DNA of 64,000 nucleotides from assembly GCA_028289135.1 (NCBI GenBank), contig JAQGGW010000003.1, positions 2,015 through 66,014 on the forward strand, given 5' to 3'. This DNA is from Candidatus Saccharimonadota bacterium. Its GTDB lineage: Bacteria > Patescibacteriota > Saccharimonadia > Saccharimonadales > JACDBH01. Positions 479-58,812 of the stretch are shown piece after piece. Position numbers and translations under genes: made by a program. Within the stretch, counting starts at the first letter, position 1. Every line of letters starts with the position of its first letter. Below the pieces are notes generated by a model that made no database searches, was not told the origin of the DNA, and was given only the letters and a program-made list of their open reading frames with translations.

Positions 479-934
479 ATGCGGTATTATTATAAAAAGC
501 TTATGCATAGAACTCATCACAAATTACGAGCTAAAAAGTCAAATATCATTTCGCTGCAGATACCTTCGTGGGCGAGCCGATTATATATTGGTCTGGGCTT
601 AATTTTAGTACCATGGACGGTTTACCTTGGCTCCAGCCTGCCAAGACATTATCTCTTAACCCACTGGGATATAAGCTGGACAGGTTTTGATATAGGCTTG
701 GCTGTCGCTCTTATATGTACGGGCATTTTTGCCTACATTAAATCCGTCTGGCTTATTATTGCCGCTTCAACTGCCGGCAGCCTCCTATTAGTTGACGCAT
801 GGTTTGATGTAATGAGCGAAAAGTCCCCTTTTGTATTGCACCAATCAATTTTATTGGCGCTGGTATTTGAAATCCCCCTAGCGCTCATGAGTTATTATTT
901 AGCGTTTCACACAATCAAGACCAACAAAAAATAA
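479..934 (+). CDS. hypothetical membrane protein
   Basis: 151-aa ORF with 3-4 hydrophobic helices (LYIGLGLILVPWTVYL, IGLAVALICTGIFAY, LIIAASTAGSLLLV). Start uncertain, with an alternative ATG at 503. Confidence 0.55.
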   Translation: MRYYYKKLMHRTHHKLRAKKSNIISLQIPSWASRLYIGLGLILVPWTVYLGSSLPRHYLLTHWDISWTGFDIGLAVALICTGIFAYIKSVWLIIAASTAGSLLLVDAWFDVMSEKSPFVLHQSILLALVFEIPLALMSYYLAFHTIKTNKK

Positions 935-4620: not shown

Positions 4621-5088
4621 ATGCCCCAACATTCACTTTTGTATTTAGATCCACATAATGCTGAACATACACCCCTTATTGTTAATGGCCTTAATATGGG
4701 CAACGACTGGGATTCCGCTGAACTTGCAGCTGACTACATCGAGCAGGGTGTTAGTAACTTATGCAGGTGGAATGCTGAAGTAATAGTACTACAAGAGGCG
4801 AATGAACCTTTGGCTATGACTGCTTGGTATGCCACAAGAGGCCCCGAGCTCATTGGCTTGGCTAGCATCAACTATGTGTATACTGCTAAACAACAAAGAA
4901 GACTAGGTTATGGCGCTTTAGTGATTCATGCCGCCGAAGACCGAGCACGAGAGCGAGGCTTTCAGCATATATGGTTGTCCTCGGTTAGGTCGGCTGTCCC
5001 GTTTTATGAAGCACTTACTTATAGAGTCCCAGATGGTGAGACTTTAGGAAAAATGCTTACACGAATGACAAAAGATCTCACAGACTAA
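4621..5088 (+). CDS. GNAT-family N-acetyltransferase
   Basis: Acetyl-CoA-binding style motif QQRRLGYGALVIHAAEDRARERG. 155 aa, visibly AT-richer than its neighbours. Confidence 0.65.
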   Translation: MPQHSLLYLDPHNAEHTPLIVNGLNMGNDWDSAELAADYIEQGVSNLCRWNAEVIVLQEANEPLAMTAWYATRGPELIGLASINYVYTAKQQRRLGYGALVIHAAEDRARERGFQHIWLSSVRSAVPFYEALTYRVPDGETLGKMLTRMTKDLTD

Positions 5089-6359
5089 CTAGGCAGCGGG
5101 AAGTCGGCCGCGAACTTAGTTATTTCGCTGTGCAGTCCGGCCAGCTTCTTATCGTCTTTATGGTTCTTGACTGCATCGTTGATCCAGTCGGCGACCATGA
5201 CCATGTGCTCTTCTTTCATGCCGCGGGTTGTCAGTGCTGGCGTGCCTAGACGAATGCCGCTTGGGTCAAATGGTGAGCGCGGGTCAAACGGCACAGTGTT
5301 TTTGTTGACGGTAATTCCAGCAAGGCCCAAAGCCTTTTCGCCCTCTTTGCCGCTGATGTTTTTGTTGTTAAGGTCAATTACCATCAAGTGGTTATCGGTG
5401 CCGCCAGTAACGATATTAAAGCCTCTCTGCAGCAGTTCGGCGGCCAGCTTTTTGGAATTTTTAACTATCTGTTTGCCATATTCTTTAAATTCTGGCTGGA
5501 GAGCTTCGCCAAGGGCAACGGCGATGGCAGCAGTCTGGTGGTTATGCGGCCCGCCCTGCAAACCCGGAATTACTGCACGGTCAATGAGTGAGGGAATGTT
5601 TTCGACAGTTCGCTCTGGTTTCTTTAAAGGGTTAGAAGGGTTCCCGTTGGCCAAAATCATCGCTCCCCGCGGACCACGCAGCGTCTTATGAGTTGTTGTC
5701 ATAATTACATCAACTATTCCTGCCGGACTTGGATGCTCCCCAGCAACAACCAATCCGCTAATGTGCGAAATGTCGGCCGCCAAAAAAGCACCTGATGCAT
5801 CGGCGATCTCGCGCATTTTTTTCCAATCAATAATGCGCGGGTAGGCCGTGGTGCCGCTCATAATTAGCTTTGGTTTGTGCTCCATTGCAAGCTGCATAAT
5901 TGCGTCGTAATCCATAAAGCCGTCTTTGTCGGTTGTATACTGCACAGAGTGGTAGTATGTGCCGCTAAAGTTCACTTTTAACCCATGCGTCATATGCCCG
6001 CCAAAATAAAGCGACATGCCCATGACAGTGTCGCCTGGGTCGACCAACGCAAAATATATGGCCTGGTTAGCCGGGCAGCCAGAGTGCGGCTGGACATTGG
6101 CAAAGCTTACGCCAAACAGTTCTTTGGCCAGGTCGCGCGCCAAATTTTCGACTTTGTCTACTACTTCACAGCCGCCATAGTAGCGCATACCAGGATAGCC
6201 TTCGGAATATTTGTCGGTTAAAATTGAGCCCGAGGCCTCACGGACCGCTACCGAAGAGTGGTTTTCGCTCGGAATCATTTCCAGCCCCTGGCTTTGGCGT
6301 GCCCGCTCTTCTTCGATAAGTTTCTTTATTTGTGCGGTAACATTTTTATCATTTGTCAT
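5085..6359 (-). CDS. glyA: serine hydroxymethyltransferase
   Basis: SENHSSVAVREASGS, YSEGYPGMRYYGG, and the PLP-lysine motif TTTHKTLRGPRG. 424 aa. Confidence 0.97.
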   Translation of the reverse strand: MTNDKNVTAQIKKLIEEERARQSQGLEMIPSENHSSVAVREASGSILTDKYSEGYPGMRYYGGCEVVDKVENLARDLAKELFGVSFANVQPHSGCPANQAIYFALVDPGDTVMGMSLYFGGHMTHGLKVNFSGTYYHSVQYTTDKDGFMDYDAIMQLAMEHKPKLIMSGTTAYPRIIDWKKMREIADASGAFLAADISHISGLVVAGEHPSPAGIVDVIMTTTHKTLRGPRGAMILANGNPSNPLKKPERTVENIPSLIDRAVIPGLQGGPHNHQTAAIAVALGEALQPEFKEYGKQIVKNSKKLAAELLQRGFNIVTGGTDNHLMVIDLNNKNISGKEGEKALGLAGITVNKNTVPFDPRSPFDPSGIRLGTPALTTRGMKEEHMVMVADWINDAVKNHKDDKKLAGLHSEITKFAADFPLPS

Positions 6360-6401
6360 ACTTTTACCCGCTCTTTCCTAGTTTAACGCCCAGTTATTGT
6401 A

Positions 6402-6523
6402 AGGGTTTCGTACTTTAGTGCAGTTTGGCCAAACAATCGAGCACCGGATTCGGAGTGTATACAGAAATACATGTAGAAACGGAGCGGAGATTTTTGGCCG
6501 AAATGTGCAAAGTACGGAAGCCT
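6402..6523. repeat. long imperfect hairpin element, copy 1 (homologous to 37884-38044)
   Basis: The arm at 6402-6430 pairs with 6496-6523, about 27 bp with bulges and G-U pairs. It shares TAGTGCAGTTTG, CGAG[C/T]ACC, AGCGGAGAT and AAATG[T/C]GCA with the second copy. Confidence 0.6.
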
Positions 6524-6641
6524 GCTCAGTTATGTTGCGTTTCATTAGATCATGGGTGTATTGTAGTTGATGTAACGCAAAAAATAAAAAAATCCGGCAA
6601 TATCGACAAAATATACCGTTCTTGATATAGTAAACAAGCTT

Positions 6642-8165
6642 ATGAATACAACCAGCGAGAAAATTGGTCACTTAATTTACCAAGTACGGCAAGAAAAAGG
6701 CCTAACCCAGGCTGAATTTGCCAAACGGCTGAACACATCGCAGTCGGCAGTTAACCGTATTGAACACGGGCACCAAAACCTTAGCATGGATATGCTAGGC
6801 CGGATTAGCGATGTTTTAAACAAGCAGATTATTAGCCTAAACACCAACGCCGTTTCACTCCGGATTGAAGGCGGCCACAAACTAAGCGGTGAGATTTCGG
6901 TTAAAACCAGCAAGAACGCTGCCGTTGGCCTGATCTGCGCTTCGCTACTTAACAAAGGCACGACCAAACTTAAGTCCGTTGCCCGCATCGAAGAAGTTAA
7001 CCGCCTGGTTGAAGTGCTTGAAAGCATTGGCGTAAAAGTCCGTTGGCTGCCCGGAAACGACCTGGAGATCAAACCGCCCGCCAAACTTAATCTTGAAAAT
7101 ATCAACGGTATAGCCGCACGCAAAACCCGCAGCGTTATCATGTTTGTCGGCGCGCTAATGCACGATTATAAAGAATTTAAGATCCCCTATGCCGGCGGCT
7201 GTGAACTTGGCAAACGAACGGTTTTGCCGCACATTTACGCGCTTGAAGAATTTGGAACGAACATCATCGCCAAAACCGGGCATTACAACATTACGTCCAA
7301 GCTCAAACTCCCAAAGCGCGATGTGGTTTTGTACGAATCCGGCGATACAACTACCGAAAACGCCTTGATGGCCGCGGCTGGATTTGAAGGCGAAACGGTT
7401 ATTAAAATGGCAAGCGCTAACTATGCAATCCAGGACATGTGTTTCTTCTTGCAAAAGCTCGGCGTCAAAATTGACGGCATCGGCACGACAACTTTGCGCG
7501 TCCGCGGCCAAAAGCGCATGAAGAAAAACATTAGCTACGCTCCAAGCGAAGACCCGGTTGAGGCCATGACTTTTATTGCGGCCGCGATTGCGACCGACTC
7601 AACGATTACTATCAAGCGCGCGCCGATTGACTTCTTAGAACTTGAACTTTTAAAGCTAGAAAAAATGGGACTGCGCTATGACACAAGCGAAAAATACAAG
7701 GCTGAAAATAATAAAACCGACCTGGTTGACCTAACTATCCACGAACACAATGGCAAGCTGATTGCGCCGGAAGACAAGCTCTATGGCCGCCCTTTCCCTG
7801 GCCTAAACATCGACAACTTACCGTATTTTGTGCCGATTGTAGCTGTTGCCAAAGGCCGCAGCATGATCCACGACTGGGTTTACGAAGACCGCGCGCTGAT
7901 GTTTACCGAAATGAAAAAGATTGGCGTTGACCTGGAGCTAGCCGACCCGCACCGGGTGTTTATTAACGGCCCAACCCGCTGGCGCGCCGCCGATTTAGTT
8001 TGCCCAAGCGGCATCCGCCCGGCAGTTATTATTTTAATCGGCATGCTGGCCGCAACCGGCACCTCCATGCTTCGCAATGTCTACACAATCAACCGCGGTT
8101 ATGAAGACCTGGCCGAGCGTTTGAATTCCCTTGGTGCGCACATCGGCATCGTTCACGAAGTATAA
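6642..8165 (+). CDS. murA: UDP-N-acetylglucosamine 1-carboxyvinyltransferase with N-terminal XRE-type HTH domain
   Basis: Residues 1-65 form an HTH (LTQAEFAKRLNTSQSAVNRIEHG). The rest is MurA/EPSP-synthase fold (GGHKLSGEISVKTSKNAA) with an active-site loop AGGCELGKRTVLPH that retains the Cys. Confidence 0.85.
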   Translation: MNTTSEKIGHLIYQVRQEKGLTQAEFAKRLNTSQSAVNRIEHGHQNLSMDMLGRISDVLNKQIISLNTNAVSLRIEGGHKLSGEISVKTSKNAAVGLICASLLNKGTTKLKSVARIEEVNRLVEVLESIGVKVRWLPGNDLEIKPPAKLNLENINGIAARKTRSVIMFVGALMHDYKEFKIPYAGGCELGKRTVLPHIYALEEFGTNIIAKTGHYNITSKLKLPKRDVVLYESGDTTTENALMAAAGFEGETVIKMASANYAIQDMCFFLQKLGVKIDGIGTTTLRVRGQKRMKKNISYAPSEDPVEAMTFIAAAIATDSTITIKRAPIDFLELELLKLEKMGLRYDTSEKYKAENNKTDLVDLTIHEHNGKLIAPEDKLYGRPFPGLNIDNLPYFVPIVAVAKGRSMIHDWVYEDRALMFTEMKKIGVDLELADPHRVFINGPTRWRAADLVCPSGIRPAVIILIGMLAATGTSMLRNVYTINRGYEDLAERLNSLGAHIGIVHEV

Positions 8166-10494: not shown

Positions 10495-10571
10495 GCACCC
10501 GTAGCTCAGCTGGATAGAGCAATGGGCTTCTATCCCACAGGTCGGGGGTTCGAATCCCTCCGGGTGTACCA
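10495..10571 (+). tRNA. tRNA-Arg (anticodon TCT)
   Basis: Acceptor GCACCCG/CGGGTGT (G1-U72), anticodon loop CTTCTAT, T-arm GGGGG-TTCGAAT-CCCTC, encoded CCA. Confidence 0.88.
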
Positions 10572-10578
10572 ATAAAAA

Positions 10579-10606
10579 AGTCTCACCGCTAGGTGGGGCT
10601 TTTTTA
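10579..10606 (+). terminator. rho-independent terminator after the tRNA pair
   Basis: AGTCTCACC-GCTA-GGTGGGGCT (9 bp including 2 G-U pairs) followed by TTTTTT. Confidence 0.7.
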
Positions 10607-10610
10607 TTGG

Positions 10611-20833: not shown

Positions 20834-20844
20834 ACACTTCTTGG

Positions 20845-20963
20845 GCCGACCTAAGCATATTCCATCTGAATGACACTCTCTACGGGGAGCCTAAGGGCTC
20901 GCCCGTGGCGTTTGGCTGGCCGAAGCGGCCACAGTCACCCAGACGAAATATGCTTAGGTCGGC
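20845..20963. other. 119-nt rod-like hairpin in a convergent intergenic region
   Basis: A perfect 17-bp closing stem GCCGACCTAAGCATATT / AATATGCTTAGGTCGGC. Inner pairings are CTG..TGAC/GTCA..CAG, GAGCC-TAAG-GGCTC and GGCCG-AAG-CGGCC. Confidence 0.6.
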
Positions 20964-21012
20964 GCGAACGTGTTTTTTAAGCCAACGTGACTCGCCTGCA
21001 TCTAAGTTTTAG

Positions 21013-32266: not shown

Positions 32267-32456
32267 TTATGACCTATTATTTTTGCCCATTTCTTTGTTG
32301 CCAGCTCCAGTCCGAGATCGTGGCTTTTTCGCAGTGTAGCGGGCTTAGCCCGCTAGCAGGCGAAAAAGAGACCATGTCAGTCGTCGTATTATCAGATACG
32401 CCTCCTTTGCGGGCTTCGCAGGCACCTCGAACTGGACTAAAAATAATAAGTCATAA
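32267..32456. repeat. 190-nt structured element with 18-bp terminal inverted repeats between pilB and pilC
   Basis: TTATGACCTATTATTTTT (32267-32284) versus AAAAATAATAAGTCATAA (32439-32456), 17 of 18 complementary. Nested pairs are CCAGTCCGAG/CTCGAACTGG and TGGCTTTTTCGC/GCGAAAAAGAGACCA, with an apical palindrome TAGCGGGCTTAGCCCGCTA. Confidence 0.6.
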
Positions 32457-32475
32457 AAAGGCTAGGTCATTTTAA

Positions 32476-37851: not shown

Positions 37852-37883
37852 ATTCTATCTCCCGCATTAATGCATTGGTGAGC

Positions 37884-38044
37884 TAGGGATTACTTACAGT
37901 AGTGCAGTTTGTTCGAAAAGCGAGTACCGAAGCGGAGATGTACGGAATGGTATATTGAGCATCGGAACACACTCTACCCCACAAAGCAGGCTTTGCGGGG
38001 ACCCTTAGCTTTTCGGACAAAATGCGCACTGTATGTAAGCCCTA
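37884..38044. repeat. long imperfect hairpin element, copy 2 (homologous to 6402-6523)
   Basis: The arm starting at 37884 (TAGGGATTACTTACAGTAGTGCAGTTTGTTCGAAAAG) pairs with CTTTTCGGACAAAATGCGCACTGTATGTAAGCCCTA ending at 38044. Inner hairpin CCCCACAAAG-CAGG-CTTTGCGGGG. Fills a convergent intergenic gap. Confidence 0.6.
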
Positions 38045-38047
38045 CTT

Positions 38048-38680
38048 CTAAAAACCGCCGTGGGCAAGTTCTACGCGCTGCGCAGAACCAAGCCGGCCAA
38101 TCCGCTCAATTGCCCGCTCGTGGCAGTTTATAACCGTCCGGCGGTAAAAATCTGGGTTTGGCGTGTTTGGGAAGGTAAAGTTTTCTTCCTCGCCGGCCGT
38201 TTCAATCGTCATGGTGCCGTAGTTGAAAAATGTCTGCAAAATTCCTTTTTTTGTCACCGATACATCTTCGACGTTGATCATATTCAAATGCCCGACTTTA
38301 TGTGAAAACAAACCAAGCTGGCGCACTTCAATCACATTTTGATCTGTAATTAAAATCCGGCTTTGGTTGTAGATCCAGAGCGTAATAAAGGTGCCAACGG
38401 CAATTAGTCCGGCCATCAGAATAAATCCAAGCGTTACCATGACCTTTAGTTGCGAAGTAAAGCTAACATGTATACCTCTGGTAAGCGAAGGCAAAAACAG
38501 CGCAAAACCAAGCATCAGCAAAATAAGTATGGCACCTGTTAGAATAATAATCGCCCGCCCAAGCCAGTGGCGGCGGACATCGGCATAAAGTTGTTCTTTT
38601 TCGTCATCGGCCACCTCTGGATAAGCTTCCACTAATGGCCTCATTGGTTGTTGTTCAGGTTCCATGTATGTTTTTACCAT
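38048..38680 (-). CDS. membrane protein with bacterial PH (YdbS/YdbT, DUF304-like) domain
   Basis: Two TM helices followed by ITDQNVIEVRQLGLFSHKV...GTMTIETAG. 210 aa. Confidence 0.6.
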   Translation of the reverse strand: MVKTYMEPEQQPMRPLVEAYPEVADDEKEQLYADVRRHWLGRAIIILTGAILILLMLGFALFLPSLTRGIHVSFTSQLKVMVTLGFILMAGLIAVGTFITLWIYNQSRILITDQNVIEVRQLGLFSHKVGHLNMINVEDVSVTKKGILQTFFNYGTMTIETAGEEENFTFPNTPNPDFYRRTVINCHERAIERIGRLGSAQRVELAHGGF

Positions 38681-42164: not shown

Positions 42165-42878
42165 TTATACAGCGATGTCGAAGTTGGTGTGGGTTGCTGT
42201 AACGTCTTGGAGTTCGTCTAATGAGTCCATTAAACGTTCAATTTTGCCAGCAGTTTCAGTGTCGGTGATTTCAATCGTGTTGGTTGGTTCATAAGACAGT
42301 TCGGCATCGATTACTTCCAGCCCGGCTGCTTTTAACGCGTCGCGGACTTTCGCCAGTTCTTTTTGGTCAGTGTAGATAATAGACTCTTCGCCTGCTTCCT
42401 GGACGTCCTCAGCCCCTGCGTCCAGTGCGCTAAGCATTAAGTCATCACCAGTGCCTTTTACACGGATAATTCCACGGTGGGCAAACTGGAAGGCCACGGC
42501 GCCTTTTTCGGCGATGCTGCCGCCGTGTTTTGAAAACGCAAACTTAACTTCTGGATAGGTTCGGTTTAGGTTGTCGGTTGCGCACTCCACCAAAATCGCC
42601 ACGCCGCCCGGGCCGTAGCCTTCATACATGACTTCCATAAGCTGGGCAGCGCCTTTGTCGGACACGCGCTTTATGGCGCGCTCGATGTTTGCCAGCGGCA
42701 TGTTGGCAGCCTTAGCCTTTTCGATTGCCATGGCAAGGCTCGCGTTCATGGTTGGGTCGGTGCCGCCGCGGGCTGCAACCGCGATTTGATTGCCGATGCG
42801 TGTAAATACCGCGCCGCGTTTTGCGTCCGTTAAGCCTTTGGCTCTTTTAATCGTTGACCACTTGGAGTGTCCGCTCAT
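42165..42878 (-). CDS. yebC: YebC/PmpR-family DNA-binding regulator
   Basis: Starts MSGHSKWSTIKRAKG, with RBS AAGGAG upstream of the ATG at 42878. The track extension is rejected. Confidence 0.92.
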   Translation of the reverse strand: MSGHSKWSTIKRAKGLTDAKRGAVFTRIGNQIAVAARGGTDPTMNASLAMAIEKAKAANMPLANIERAIKRVSDKGAAQLMEVMYEGYGPGGVAILVECATDNLNRTYPEVKFAFSKHGGSIAEKGAVAFQFAHRGIIRVKGTGDDLMLSALDAGAEDVQEAGEESIIYTDQKELAKVRDALKAAGLEVIDAELSYEPTNTIEITDTETAGKIERLMDSLDELQDVTATHTNFDIAV

Positions 42879-43023
42879 AATTCTCCTTATGTGCGCGCCT
42901 TTGTATGCGGCATATTTTGGGCGGATAGCTCCGGGCTTGGCTGCTACGTACTTTCCTGTACGTTTCCGCCGAAGTCCTCGCTCTCCATCCCAAACTATGC
43001 TCGCCCACAAAACCGCTTAACAT

Positions 43024-52573: not shown

Positions 52574-52602
52574 ATTATACCACATTATGTGTTATAAAGC
52601 AA
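52574..52602 (-). promoter_or_regulatory. candidate promoter of the ATP-grasp operon
   Basis: The minus strand reads TTGCTT-N17-TGGTATAAT (extended -10), about 45 nt upstream of the ATG at 52530. One GTGTTATAA motif overlaps the spacer. Confidence 0.45.
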
Positions 52603-52743
52603 TAGTTTTTAGGTGTTATATCAAGAGTTTCAGGCAGGGTCAAAGGTCAAGTTTTTGGTTATCAAACAACTGATAACTCTTCCTTTATAACACCTGTGAG
52701 CAGTTATGTACACTGTTTAATTAACTGTGGCCGTTAGGGTTGT

Positions 52744-58499: not shown

Positions 58500-58521
58500 A
58501 ACAATGATACCACAAATAAAA

Positions 58522-58548
58522 TTGGCACTCAAGTACCTAGAGTGCCAA
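58522..58548. promoter_or_regulatory. second, CIRCE-like operator upstream of dnaK
   Basis: TTGGCACTC-N9-GAGTGCCAA is a perfect inverted repeat. On the minus strand a candidate promoter TTGAGT-N17-TATCAT lies between the two operators. Confidence 0.7.
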
Positions 58549-58554
58549 TTTATT

Positions 58555-58812
58555 TTATTCACATATTATTGTTTCTATAAAACCTATAAATTTTCTAAAT
58601 TGTGAGGCTACGTCCTGTTTTGTTCCTTCTGCGGCAACAGCTAAATACTCAGGCTCATTTATAATAATTCCAATATGGAATAAGTCTCCTCTTAAGATAT
58701 CCTCACCATCCTTAACTTCATCTGCCTCAAAAAGATCCAGTAGTCTGTGCATAGATGTAACCCACGTTAAATCTATAGTTCGCAAGAATAACTCTGGTTC
58801 CATTTCTGCCAT
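58555..58812 (-). CDS. hypothetical acidic protein between grpE and dnaK
   Basis: 85 aa, begins 12 nt after the grpE stop. Strongly AT-rich compared with its neighbours. No RBS and no motif. Confidence 0.45.
   Translation of the reverse strand: MAEMEPELFLRTIDLTWVTSMHRLLDLFEADEVKDGEDILRGDLFHIGIIINEPEYLAVAAEGTKQDVASQFRKFIGFIETIICE

Follow-up and report, generated by a model that had tools for sequence, protein, structure and literature searches.

The hairpin-forming sequence between glyA and murA of Candidatus Saccharimonadota bacterium (GenBank assembly GCA_028289135.1) is one copy of a dispersed repeat, a non-autonomous palindrome of about 122-190 bp that is limited to some lineages of Saccharimonadales. 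The stretch of DNA analysed here (the window) comprises 64,000 nt of contig JAQGGW010000003.1, positions 2,015 to 66,014, and the copy in question (copy 1) occupies window positions 6402-6523 on the + strand. The fold of the element, a long imperfect rod, is under selection, and this selection acts on one strand, the TAGTGCAG strand. The element is probably a mobile repeat resembling a MITE (miniature inverted-repeat transposable element), in which the fold of a single strand is selected.

The repeat family and its copies in the window

Scanning one genome per species with the pattern TAGTGCAGTTTG-N6-14-CGAGYACCG gave 31 loci, which served as the starting set for the MITE-like rod family; 29 are genuine, and two are chance matches within coding-like sequence. 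Nearly all of these loci are in metagenome-assembled genomes (MAGs) of Saccharimonadales, several of which have two matches, and one of which, JTS-RE396, has five. A covariance model built from 24 family members (model R1, alignment A2) found 39 copies; among them are a third copy in the window and, in seven loci, a further copy at a distance of 1-3 kb. A further model (R2), built from those 39 copies, added a fourth copy in the window. Together the models identify 40 copies in about 25 Saccharimonadales MAGs, in fetched fragments whose loci carry labels such as L004 and L015. The original prediction, made from the window alone, described a two-member family; this was an undercount, given the additional window copies at 42892-43018 and 32267-32455 and the 40 copies in related loci.

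Copies range from 91 to 189 nt in length, within the size limit of about 400 bp for MITEs, and have no coding capacity for a transposase. Positive genomes carry about one copy per 16-30 kb, with four copies in the window and at least seven in the fragments of JTS-RE396. A metagenome scan was made with the fusion of a helix-turn-helix (HTH) domain to MurA that is encoded beside copy 1; it returned 80 loci (965 kb) with 55-93% identity, and neither R1 nor R2 finds a family copy in any of them. There were also no matches in viral contigs with the pattern scan, nor in plasmid and phage collections with blastn. At gathering thresholds, Rfam models matched seven tRNAs across the whole window and nothing at the hairpin copies, and at E<=10 the sole matches of copies 1 and 2 were chance ones, to families of snoRNA and miRNA, which agrees with the original view that the element belongs to no known Rfam class. 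In the literature on non-coding RNAs (ncRNAs) or MITEs of Saccharibacteria we found no report of such an element.

Copy 1 lies in a 282-nt spacer between the divergent genes glyA (5085-6359, -), encoding serine hydroxymethyltransferase, and the HTH-MurA fusion gene (6642-8165, +). Folding of 6395-6530 (+) gives a single rod in which 6402-6433 pairs with 6494-6523, with a minimum free energy of -58.3 kcal/mol (z -7.76; none of 200 shuffles is as good), confirming that the rod first noticed in this spacer is real. The complementary strand reaches only -37.2 kcal/mol. The covariance models match copy 1 at 6400-6526 (R1, 95.2 bits, E 1e-21; R2, 103 bits).

Copy 2 (37884-38045, +) is a rod with an extra inserted hairpin that creates a three-way junction (R1 and R2, 69-75 bits). 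It is located 3' of an operon resembling pilM/N/O, its 3' end being 2-4 nt from the stop codon of a convergent bPH_2 gene (38048-38680, -), and 37878-38050 folds at -77.5 kcal/mol (z -8.5), against -66.7 kcal/mol for the complement. The proposed homology of copies 1 and 2 is borne out, as TAGTGCAGTTTG is exactly common to both and the models match both with E-values from 1e-21 to 1e-14. The claim that the two copies share sequence blocks in the same order stands for TAGTGCAGTTTG and falls for AGCGGAGAT, which was matched at non-homologous positions: it is part of the 16-nt motif GAGCAYCGRAGCGSAG, which each side of the rod carries, and it was taken from the 3' side in copy 1 and from the 5' side in copy 2.

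Copy 3 (42892-43018, -) is in the spacer between comEC and yebC, in sense orientation (fold z -7.75; 72.8 bits, E 5e-16 to 2e-15; R2, 91 bits). Copy 4 (32267-32455, -) also carries an inserted hairpin and lies between pilB and pilC, genes of the T2SSE and T2SSF families, antisense to both and with its 3' end abutting the pilB stop codon (R2, 51.2 bits, E 1e-10).

The rod fold is selected on one strand

All copies can be described by a common fold. From the outside inwards it consists of a variable outer stem, the segment UAGUGCAGUUUG facing CAAAAUGUGCA with conserved bulges and tandem U.G/G.U pairs, a variable second stem, an internal-loop and helix region (CGAGCACCG...CGGAGCGSAG), and an apical CGUAC-loop-GUACG hairpin. 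In copy 1 the 5' conserved motif TAGTGCAGTTTG (6416-6427, +) supplies a bulged A, the GUGCA helix with its tandem U.G/G.U, a bulged G and UUUG, and its partner is the 3' conserved motif CGAAATGTGCA (6499-6509, +). The central motif CGAGCACCG (6438-6446, +) is the occurrence of the repeated GAGCAYCGRAGCGSAG block on the 5' side, and its CCG pairs with CGG at 6481-6483. The apical hairpin (6455-6472, +) reads GUGUAU-loop-AUACAU in copy 1, while in most copies it is CGUAC-variable loop-GUACG. Motif TAGTGCAGTTTG is invariant in alignment A2, where pairs 20-24/109-113 are GC, UG, GU, CG and AU in 23-24 of the 24 sequences, and CGAAATGTGCA is nearly invariant among the pattern-scan matches although it is outside the search pattern. 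The conserved bulges and internal loops persist across the family. Some copies carry inserted hairpins, and there is one mini version of about 90 nt (L004, 4801-4893), from which the apical domain has been deleted between CCG and CGG of the repeated motif, leaving a 17-nt loop (CGAGCACCGGAGCACAG). The mini copy indicates that the rod can persist as its outer two thirds alone.

Strong covariation supports this fold. In a 39-sequence alignment fitted to the covariance model, 90.5% of paired cells can pair, compared with 33-52% when partners are slid, and double changes are seen in 41 of 44 pairs. The covariation score is 0.526, against 0.07-0.12 for slid partners, and none of 500 shuffles reaches it. 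The apical helix (helix 4) is 97.7% paired, with double changes in four of its five pairs. Nineteen pairs already show double changes in an unfitted MAFFT alignment. Copy 3 has GCAUA/UAUGC instead of the conserved GUGCA/UGUGC helix and CUU/AAG instead of CCG/CGG, so that even the "invariant" helix covaries. The observation that two diverged copies both keep the fold thus holds, and extends to 39-40 copies.

The TAGTGCAG strand folds better in 31 of 31 initial members from the pattern scan, with means of -62.5 and -47.4 kcal/mol for the two strands, and it is also the more stable strand in eight copies found later; the fold is therefore strand-specific. Outside the conserved helix, G.U pairs number 122 and A.C pairs 44. 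Orthologous copies between atpE and atpF (L015, L023 and L030) provide a view of the fold over time. They have been in place since several species diverged, with the pairing strand antisense to the operon, and the spacers flanking them can no longer be aligned. Of their paired columns 12 of 88 are variable, as against 16 of 38 unpaired columns, and three pairs have changed on both sides. The fold is kept by compensatory change, and the copies are thus maintained rather than decaying.

Covariation, the conservation of bulges and internal loops, and a G.U bias on one strand would also be seen if the element were a family of structured, trans-acting small RNAs (sRNAs), each transcribed independently and with loops and bulges that bind a protein, as in 6S, Y and signal recognition particle (SRP) RNAs. 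Old paralogues that keep the fold are in line with such a family, and the lack of an Rfam match would make it a new class. However, the repeated unit stops exactly at the base of the rod, and its genomic position is not conserved. A sigma-70-like site is present in the 80 nt upstream in only 4 of 40 copies, which is no enrichment, and none of the 40 is followed by a terminator. Some copies are only 16-20 nt from a divergent start codon, leaving no room for a promoter. In addition, the element is absent from the same locus in a relative with 93% identity and from the 965 kb of murA relatives. A stand-alone sRNA gene is thus not supported by the rod-only unit, the scarcity of promoter-like sites and the unconserved position, and we think the sRNA explanation quite unlikely.

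The resemblance to known rod-shaped ncRNAs (6S, small SRP and Y RNA) lies in a long rod shape that the 5' and 3' ends close, in internal loops that are conserved and, in some cases, in the presence of two paralogues. The differences are the lack of a match to these families even at E<=10, a central CCGN/NCGG segment that is a covarying helix and not the open bubble of 6S RNA, the absence of a GNRA-capped domain IV, and a family without promoters and with mobile genomic positions. The 6S, SRP and Y RNAs were accordingly rejected as identities, having neither a model match, a central bubble nor a GNRA-capped loop. Retron RNA and omega-RNA were rejected likewise, with no reverse transcriptase, TnpB or IscB gene adjacent. 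Kink-turn and sarcin-ricin internal loops were considered by eye and rejected, as the GA/AG positions they need are not conserved.

Insertion, orientation and reading frames

Evidence of mobility is found in JTS-RE396. Five near-identical copies in this MAG (88-98% identity to each other, where copies from one genome are typically 50-65% identical) occupy different housekeeping spacers, and four have clean target-site duplications of 5-6 bp at the base of the rod: CACTT-CAGG...CCTG-CACTT, GTTCA-...-GTTCA, GAACAT-...-GAACAT and TTACA-ACAGG...CCTGT-TTACA. With the copy in L025 (TCAAC-AAGG...CCTT-TCAAC), clean duplications are found at five loci (L006, L011, L016, L027 and L025). Under a null in which flanks of different family loci are paired, with offsets of +/-3 allowed, the probability of a direct repeat of at least 5 nt is 0.055. 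The repeated unit is exactly the rod. As regards terminal inverted repeats, the element is palindromic, though imperfectly, over its entire length; its outer stem has 15-20 bp and its tips are loose (AGG...CCT in about half of the copies). Copy 1 is itself flanked by a 7-nt direct repeat, CAGTTAT, at 6391-6397 and 6527-6533, a candidate target-site duplication. At L014, two copies stand head to head 28 nt apart, at 599-738 (-) and 767-880 (+); one is young and one old, pointing to repeated insertion at one spot.

The glyA-murA spacer is itself polymorphic for the element. In the closest relative (L032, MurA 93% identical) this spacer is 152 nt long and lacks the element, with a single clean 132-nt gap over copy 1, and the window spacer without 6398-6533 can be aligned with the empty site over the full length (195 nt against 201 nt). 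Copy 1 is therefore inserted relative to L032, and as all 80 relatives are empty, parsimony favours its insertion in the lineage of the window. The original prediction had left the choice between a small structured RNA family and a MITE-like mobile palindrome. The latter is favoured by the many copies, the duplications, the empty site and the lack of a promoter, terminator or transposase; the former, as a stand-alone RNA gene, is not supported. Dozens of copies with target-site duplications, which had been named as the mark of an ordinary MITE, are approached but not quite reached, at about one copy per 16-30 kb and with clear duplications in young copies only.

Neighbouring genes vary from locus to locus (atpE/atpF, pilB/pilC, comEC/yebC, pnp, nrdR, glyA/murA and others) and none is conserved. 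Orientation is biased. Of 37 copies, 27 face a convergent gene downstream, and the rod has its 3' end -4 to +3 nt from the convergent stop codon at about 16 independent loci; a co-directional stop codon is abutted by the 5' end in only 3-4 copies. Eighteen copies are antisense to both neighbours, and thus lie inside strings of genes that run in one direction.

Positions directly after stop codons and within operons (atpE-atpF, pilB-pilC, comEC-yebC), together with the compensatory changes in orthologous copies, could suggest a host cis-acting mRNA element, such as an intercistronic or 3' untranslated hairpin that serves as an RNase III site, stabiliser or terminator and whose spread is incidental. 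Comparable roles have been described for ERIC, Correia and REP sequences (PMC3184786). However, at about three quarters of the loci the mRNA would correspond to the complementary strand, with A.C mismatches where the other strand has G.U pairs, so it is not an mRNA hairpin that selection acts on, and open reading frames (ORFs) spanning the element would open up the hairpin instead of making use of it. There is also no U-tract past either end of the rod, on which ground an intrinsic terminator was rejected. The organism uses consensus promoters and canonical terminators elsewhere in the window; bidirectional intrinsic terminators with a GC stem and A/T runs are found, for example, at 10569-10610 and 58514-58556. 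As ordinary terminators are present, the rods are something else, and a cis-acting mRNA element is in our judgement unlikely.

The complementary strand has features of its own. It starts AGGA-N10-AUGCACAUUUUG, where the top strand has UAG at the matching place, and 46 of its 120 frames are stop-free compared with 21 of 120 on the other strand. Of 25 loci, 17 have an ORF that spans the element, where dinucleotide shuffles predict 8.65. In tight spacers such an ORF ends at the next start codon (L015, TAG-ATG; L023, TAATG; L030, ATGACTAA; L031, ATGA), and in L021 its stop is 2 nt before the next ATG. In the window, a predicted 68-codon ORF (32269-32475, +) spans copy 4 on the mRNA strand and fills the pilB-pilC spacer to the nucleotide, beginning 2 nt past the pilB TAA and with its own TAA directly before the pilC ATG (shuffle probability 0.07). 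A predicted 58-codon ORF (42847-43023, -) directly follows the comEC TAG (TAGATG), spans copy 3 and ends 28 nt into yebC, whose own frame is also open through copy 3. A 55-codon ORF (6378-6545, -; ATG at 6545) runs antisense through copy 1 and stops 18 nt before the glyA ATG. The same frame extends to 97 codons across the whole spacer (6378-6671, -), the ATG at 6545 being internal, and this ORF is possibly due to chance (shuffle probability of a spanning ORF 0.32).

A small protein gene on the complementary strand, with peptides beginning MHILPE..., would account for the AGGA-N10-AUG start context, the excess of stop-free frames and the spanning ORFs in operons. Yet the frame differs between copies, for example between copy 4 and the MHIL frame, so that it is openness and not a peptide that is conserved. 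The ORFs are also only 6-16 codons long in many copies, codon positions are equally conserved, and changes are compensatory for pairing rather than synonymous. We regard a protein-coding element as extremely improbable. Judging from their arrangement in the sequence, the ORFs that span copies in operons may instead reflect accommodation of the insert through translational read-through.

A strand-specific fold with conserved extrahelical bases, a variable terminus that accepts inserted hairpins and a biased orientation could also be expected of a folded single-stranded DNA site for recombination or transposition, of the attC, IS200/IS605 or REP/RAYT type, acted on by a tyrosine recombinase or HUH enzyme. 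Such systems do not make 5-6 bp duplications of variable sequence, however, and the consensus has no RYYYAAC/GTTRRRY core sites. Elements derived from IS200/IS605 and REP/REPIN go in beside a fixed tetra- or pentanucleotide without duplicating the target. The copies do not form cassette arrays, have housekeeping neighbours in mixed orientation, and are without an integrase, RAYT or TnpA gene nearby. The hairpin strand is usually antisense and, if genes follow replication, would be the leading-strand template and not the lagging one; in the window, the GC skew is not strong enough to tell which replication strand is which. This explanation is very unlikely.

Under the MITE-like reading that we prefer, an enzyme supplied in trans would make staggered cuts of about 5 bp and insert the element in short spacers beside stop codons. 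This enzyme or another host factor would recognise the top strand folded as a single strand, be it DNA or RNA, and such recognition would keep the fold intact. Copies within operons would survive mainly where the weaker hairpin is in the mRNA, that strand being the one with AGGA-N10-AUG and a stop-poor frame. Ribosomes could then read through the insert, staying coupled to the next gene.

Several points weigh against this reading. Target-site duplications are missing from most copies, including most of the older ones, and the CAGTTAT repeat of copy 1 is 3-4 nt outside the paired stem, where only 1-2 nt part the duplications of young copies from their outermost AGG/CCT pairs. Conservation is highest in the interior and lowest in the outer stem, the would-be terminal inverted repeat, which is the opposite of the pattern usual in MITEs. 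The 1.25 Mb of fetched DNA revealed no autonomous partner with matching ends: searches for element halves 200-4000 nt apart returned nothing but chance pairs and pairs from neighbouring copies. In the fetched loci there is also no transposase next to any copy. The number of copies per genome is an extrapolation from fragments, and the enrichment of spanning ORFs is only about two-fold in loci that are partly phylogenetically dependent. Covariation with a G.U bias on one strand is the expectation for a functional RNA, the pairing is selected on a strand usually absent from mRNA, and the orthologous copies are under purifying selection, which makes a purely selfish reading incomplete.

These features leave some room, which we consider rather doubtful, for an element that is more than a passive MITE. 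Its folded single strand might be bound by a dedicated protein, as in a bacterial SINE-like retroelement, whose mobile structured RNA would be copied back into DNA, or a new kind of hairpin-dependent transposon with 5-bp duplications; it might act as a host antisense regulator; or the complementary strand might be "translation-transparent", having a Shine-Dalgarno sequence with AUG and few stops, which would allow it to persist in the operons of streamlined genomes. Near the copies in the fetched loci there is neither a reverse transcriptase nor any other recurrent neighbour gene.

Other features of the window and related repeats

A fifth rod of about 120 nt, at 20843-20964 (-), has a 30-bp stem and two apical hairpins (-81.6 kcal/mol, z -10.6); an ABC1-kinase gene and a YmdB-like gene converge on the spacer that holds it. 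The rod has GCAUAUUUCG...GGAAUAUGC in common with copy 3 and reaches only E 1.4 with the family model, and may be a distant family member or belong to a second repeat family. The region 52589-52693, in a divergent spacer (52530/52914), contains an 11-nt inverted repeat (GTGTTATAAAG...CTTTATAACAC). Its fold is weak (z -2.8), it does not belong to the family, and it looks closer to a pair of operator half-sites than to an RNA.

The MurA protein encoded at 6642-8165 (+) has an N-terminal Cro/C1-type HTH domain (HTH_3 followed by EPSP_synthase), and this fusion is kept in 80 of 80 related loci. Upstream of its gene, 6603-6631 contains a near-consensus promoter (TCGACA-17-TATAGT) that ends 11 nt before the ATG, so that its mRNA would have next to no leader. 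Exactly this GlyA and this MurA are encoded on just two public contigs, both short and both from Logan (L112 and L113, from SRR13312994). Both terminate inside copy 1, at approximately 6444-6467 of the window, and overlap by about 24 nt in the CGAGCACCG region, as expected if assembly breaks at a repeat.

The nearest described analogue in kind is bcr1, with ERIC, Correia and RPE as broader relatives; none is related in sequence. The bcr1 repeat of the Bacillus cereus group ("Group A", about 155 bp) has 5-bp direct repeats, unconserved positions and compensatory changes that keep its RNA structure (PMC3184786). It resembles the window family in being a small, non-coding, dispersed repeat with these same properties. 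The window family differs from bcr1 in its variable target pentamers (CACTT, GTTCA, AACAT, TTACA, TCAAC), in forming a single long rod with conserved internal loops, whereas bcr1 is transcribed and forms a cruciform-like pair of stem-loops, and in its host, a Saccharibacteria lineage with a reduced genome.

ERIC or IRU (127 bp) and Correia or NEMIS are imperfect palindromes of about 100-160 bp found in transcribed spacers and at the 3' ends of genes; both are MITEs that form long hairpins, and their copy number varies greatly among related genomes (PMC3184786). RPE, the Rickettsia palindromic elements, is also listed in that review (PMC3184786). ERIC and Correia have a TA duplication and conserved terminal repeats, in contrast to the variable tips, conserved interior and 5-7 bp duplication of the family described here. 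To our knowledge, neither a one-strand G.U bias nor an antisense preference is a feature of those families. The likeness to RPE lies in palindromic repeats of about 105-146 bp that a symbiont with a reduced genome tolerates as translatable sequence, just as ORFs span the copies in operons here and copy 3 leaves the yebC frame open. RPEs occur in frame inside protein-coding genes, while the copies described here lie between genes.

The genomes of Saccharibacteria, members of the Candidate Phyla Radiation, measure about 1 Mb, and mobile or repetitive DNA is believed to be scarce in them. A constrained palindromic repeat of the kind proposed here would mean that mobile DNA persists in streamlined genomes, even in the operons for ATP synthase, pilus and competence functions. 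Structure-based scans are bound to call such rods novel sRNAs. The rods also break assemblies, and could be of use as strain markers. Leads on how a compact genome may accommodate insertion are given by the pairing bias towards one strand and by the ORFs that span copies in operons.

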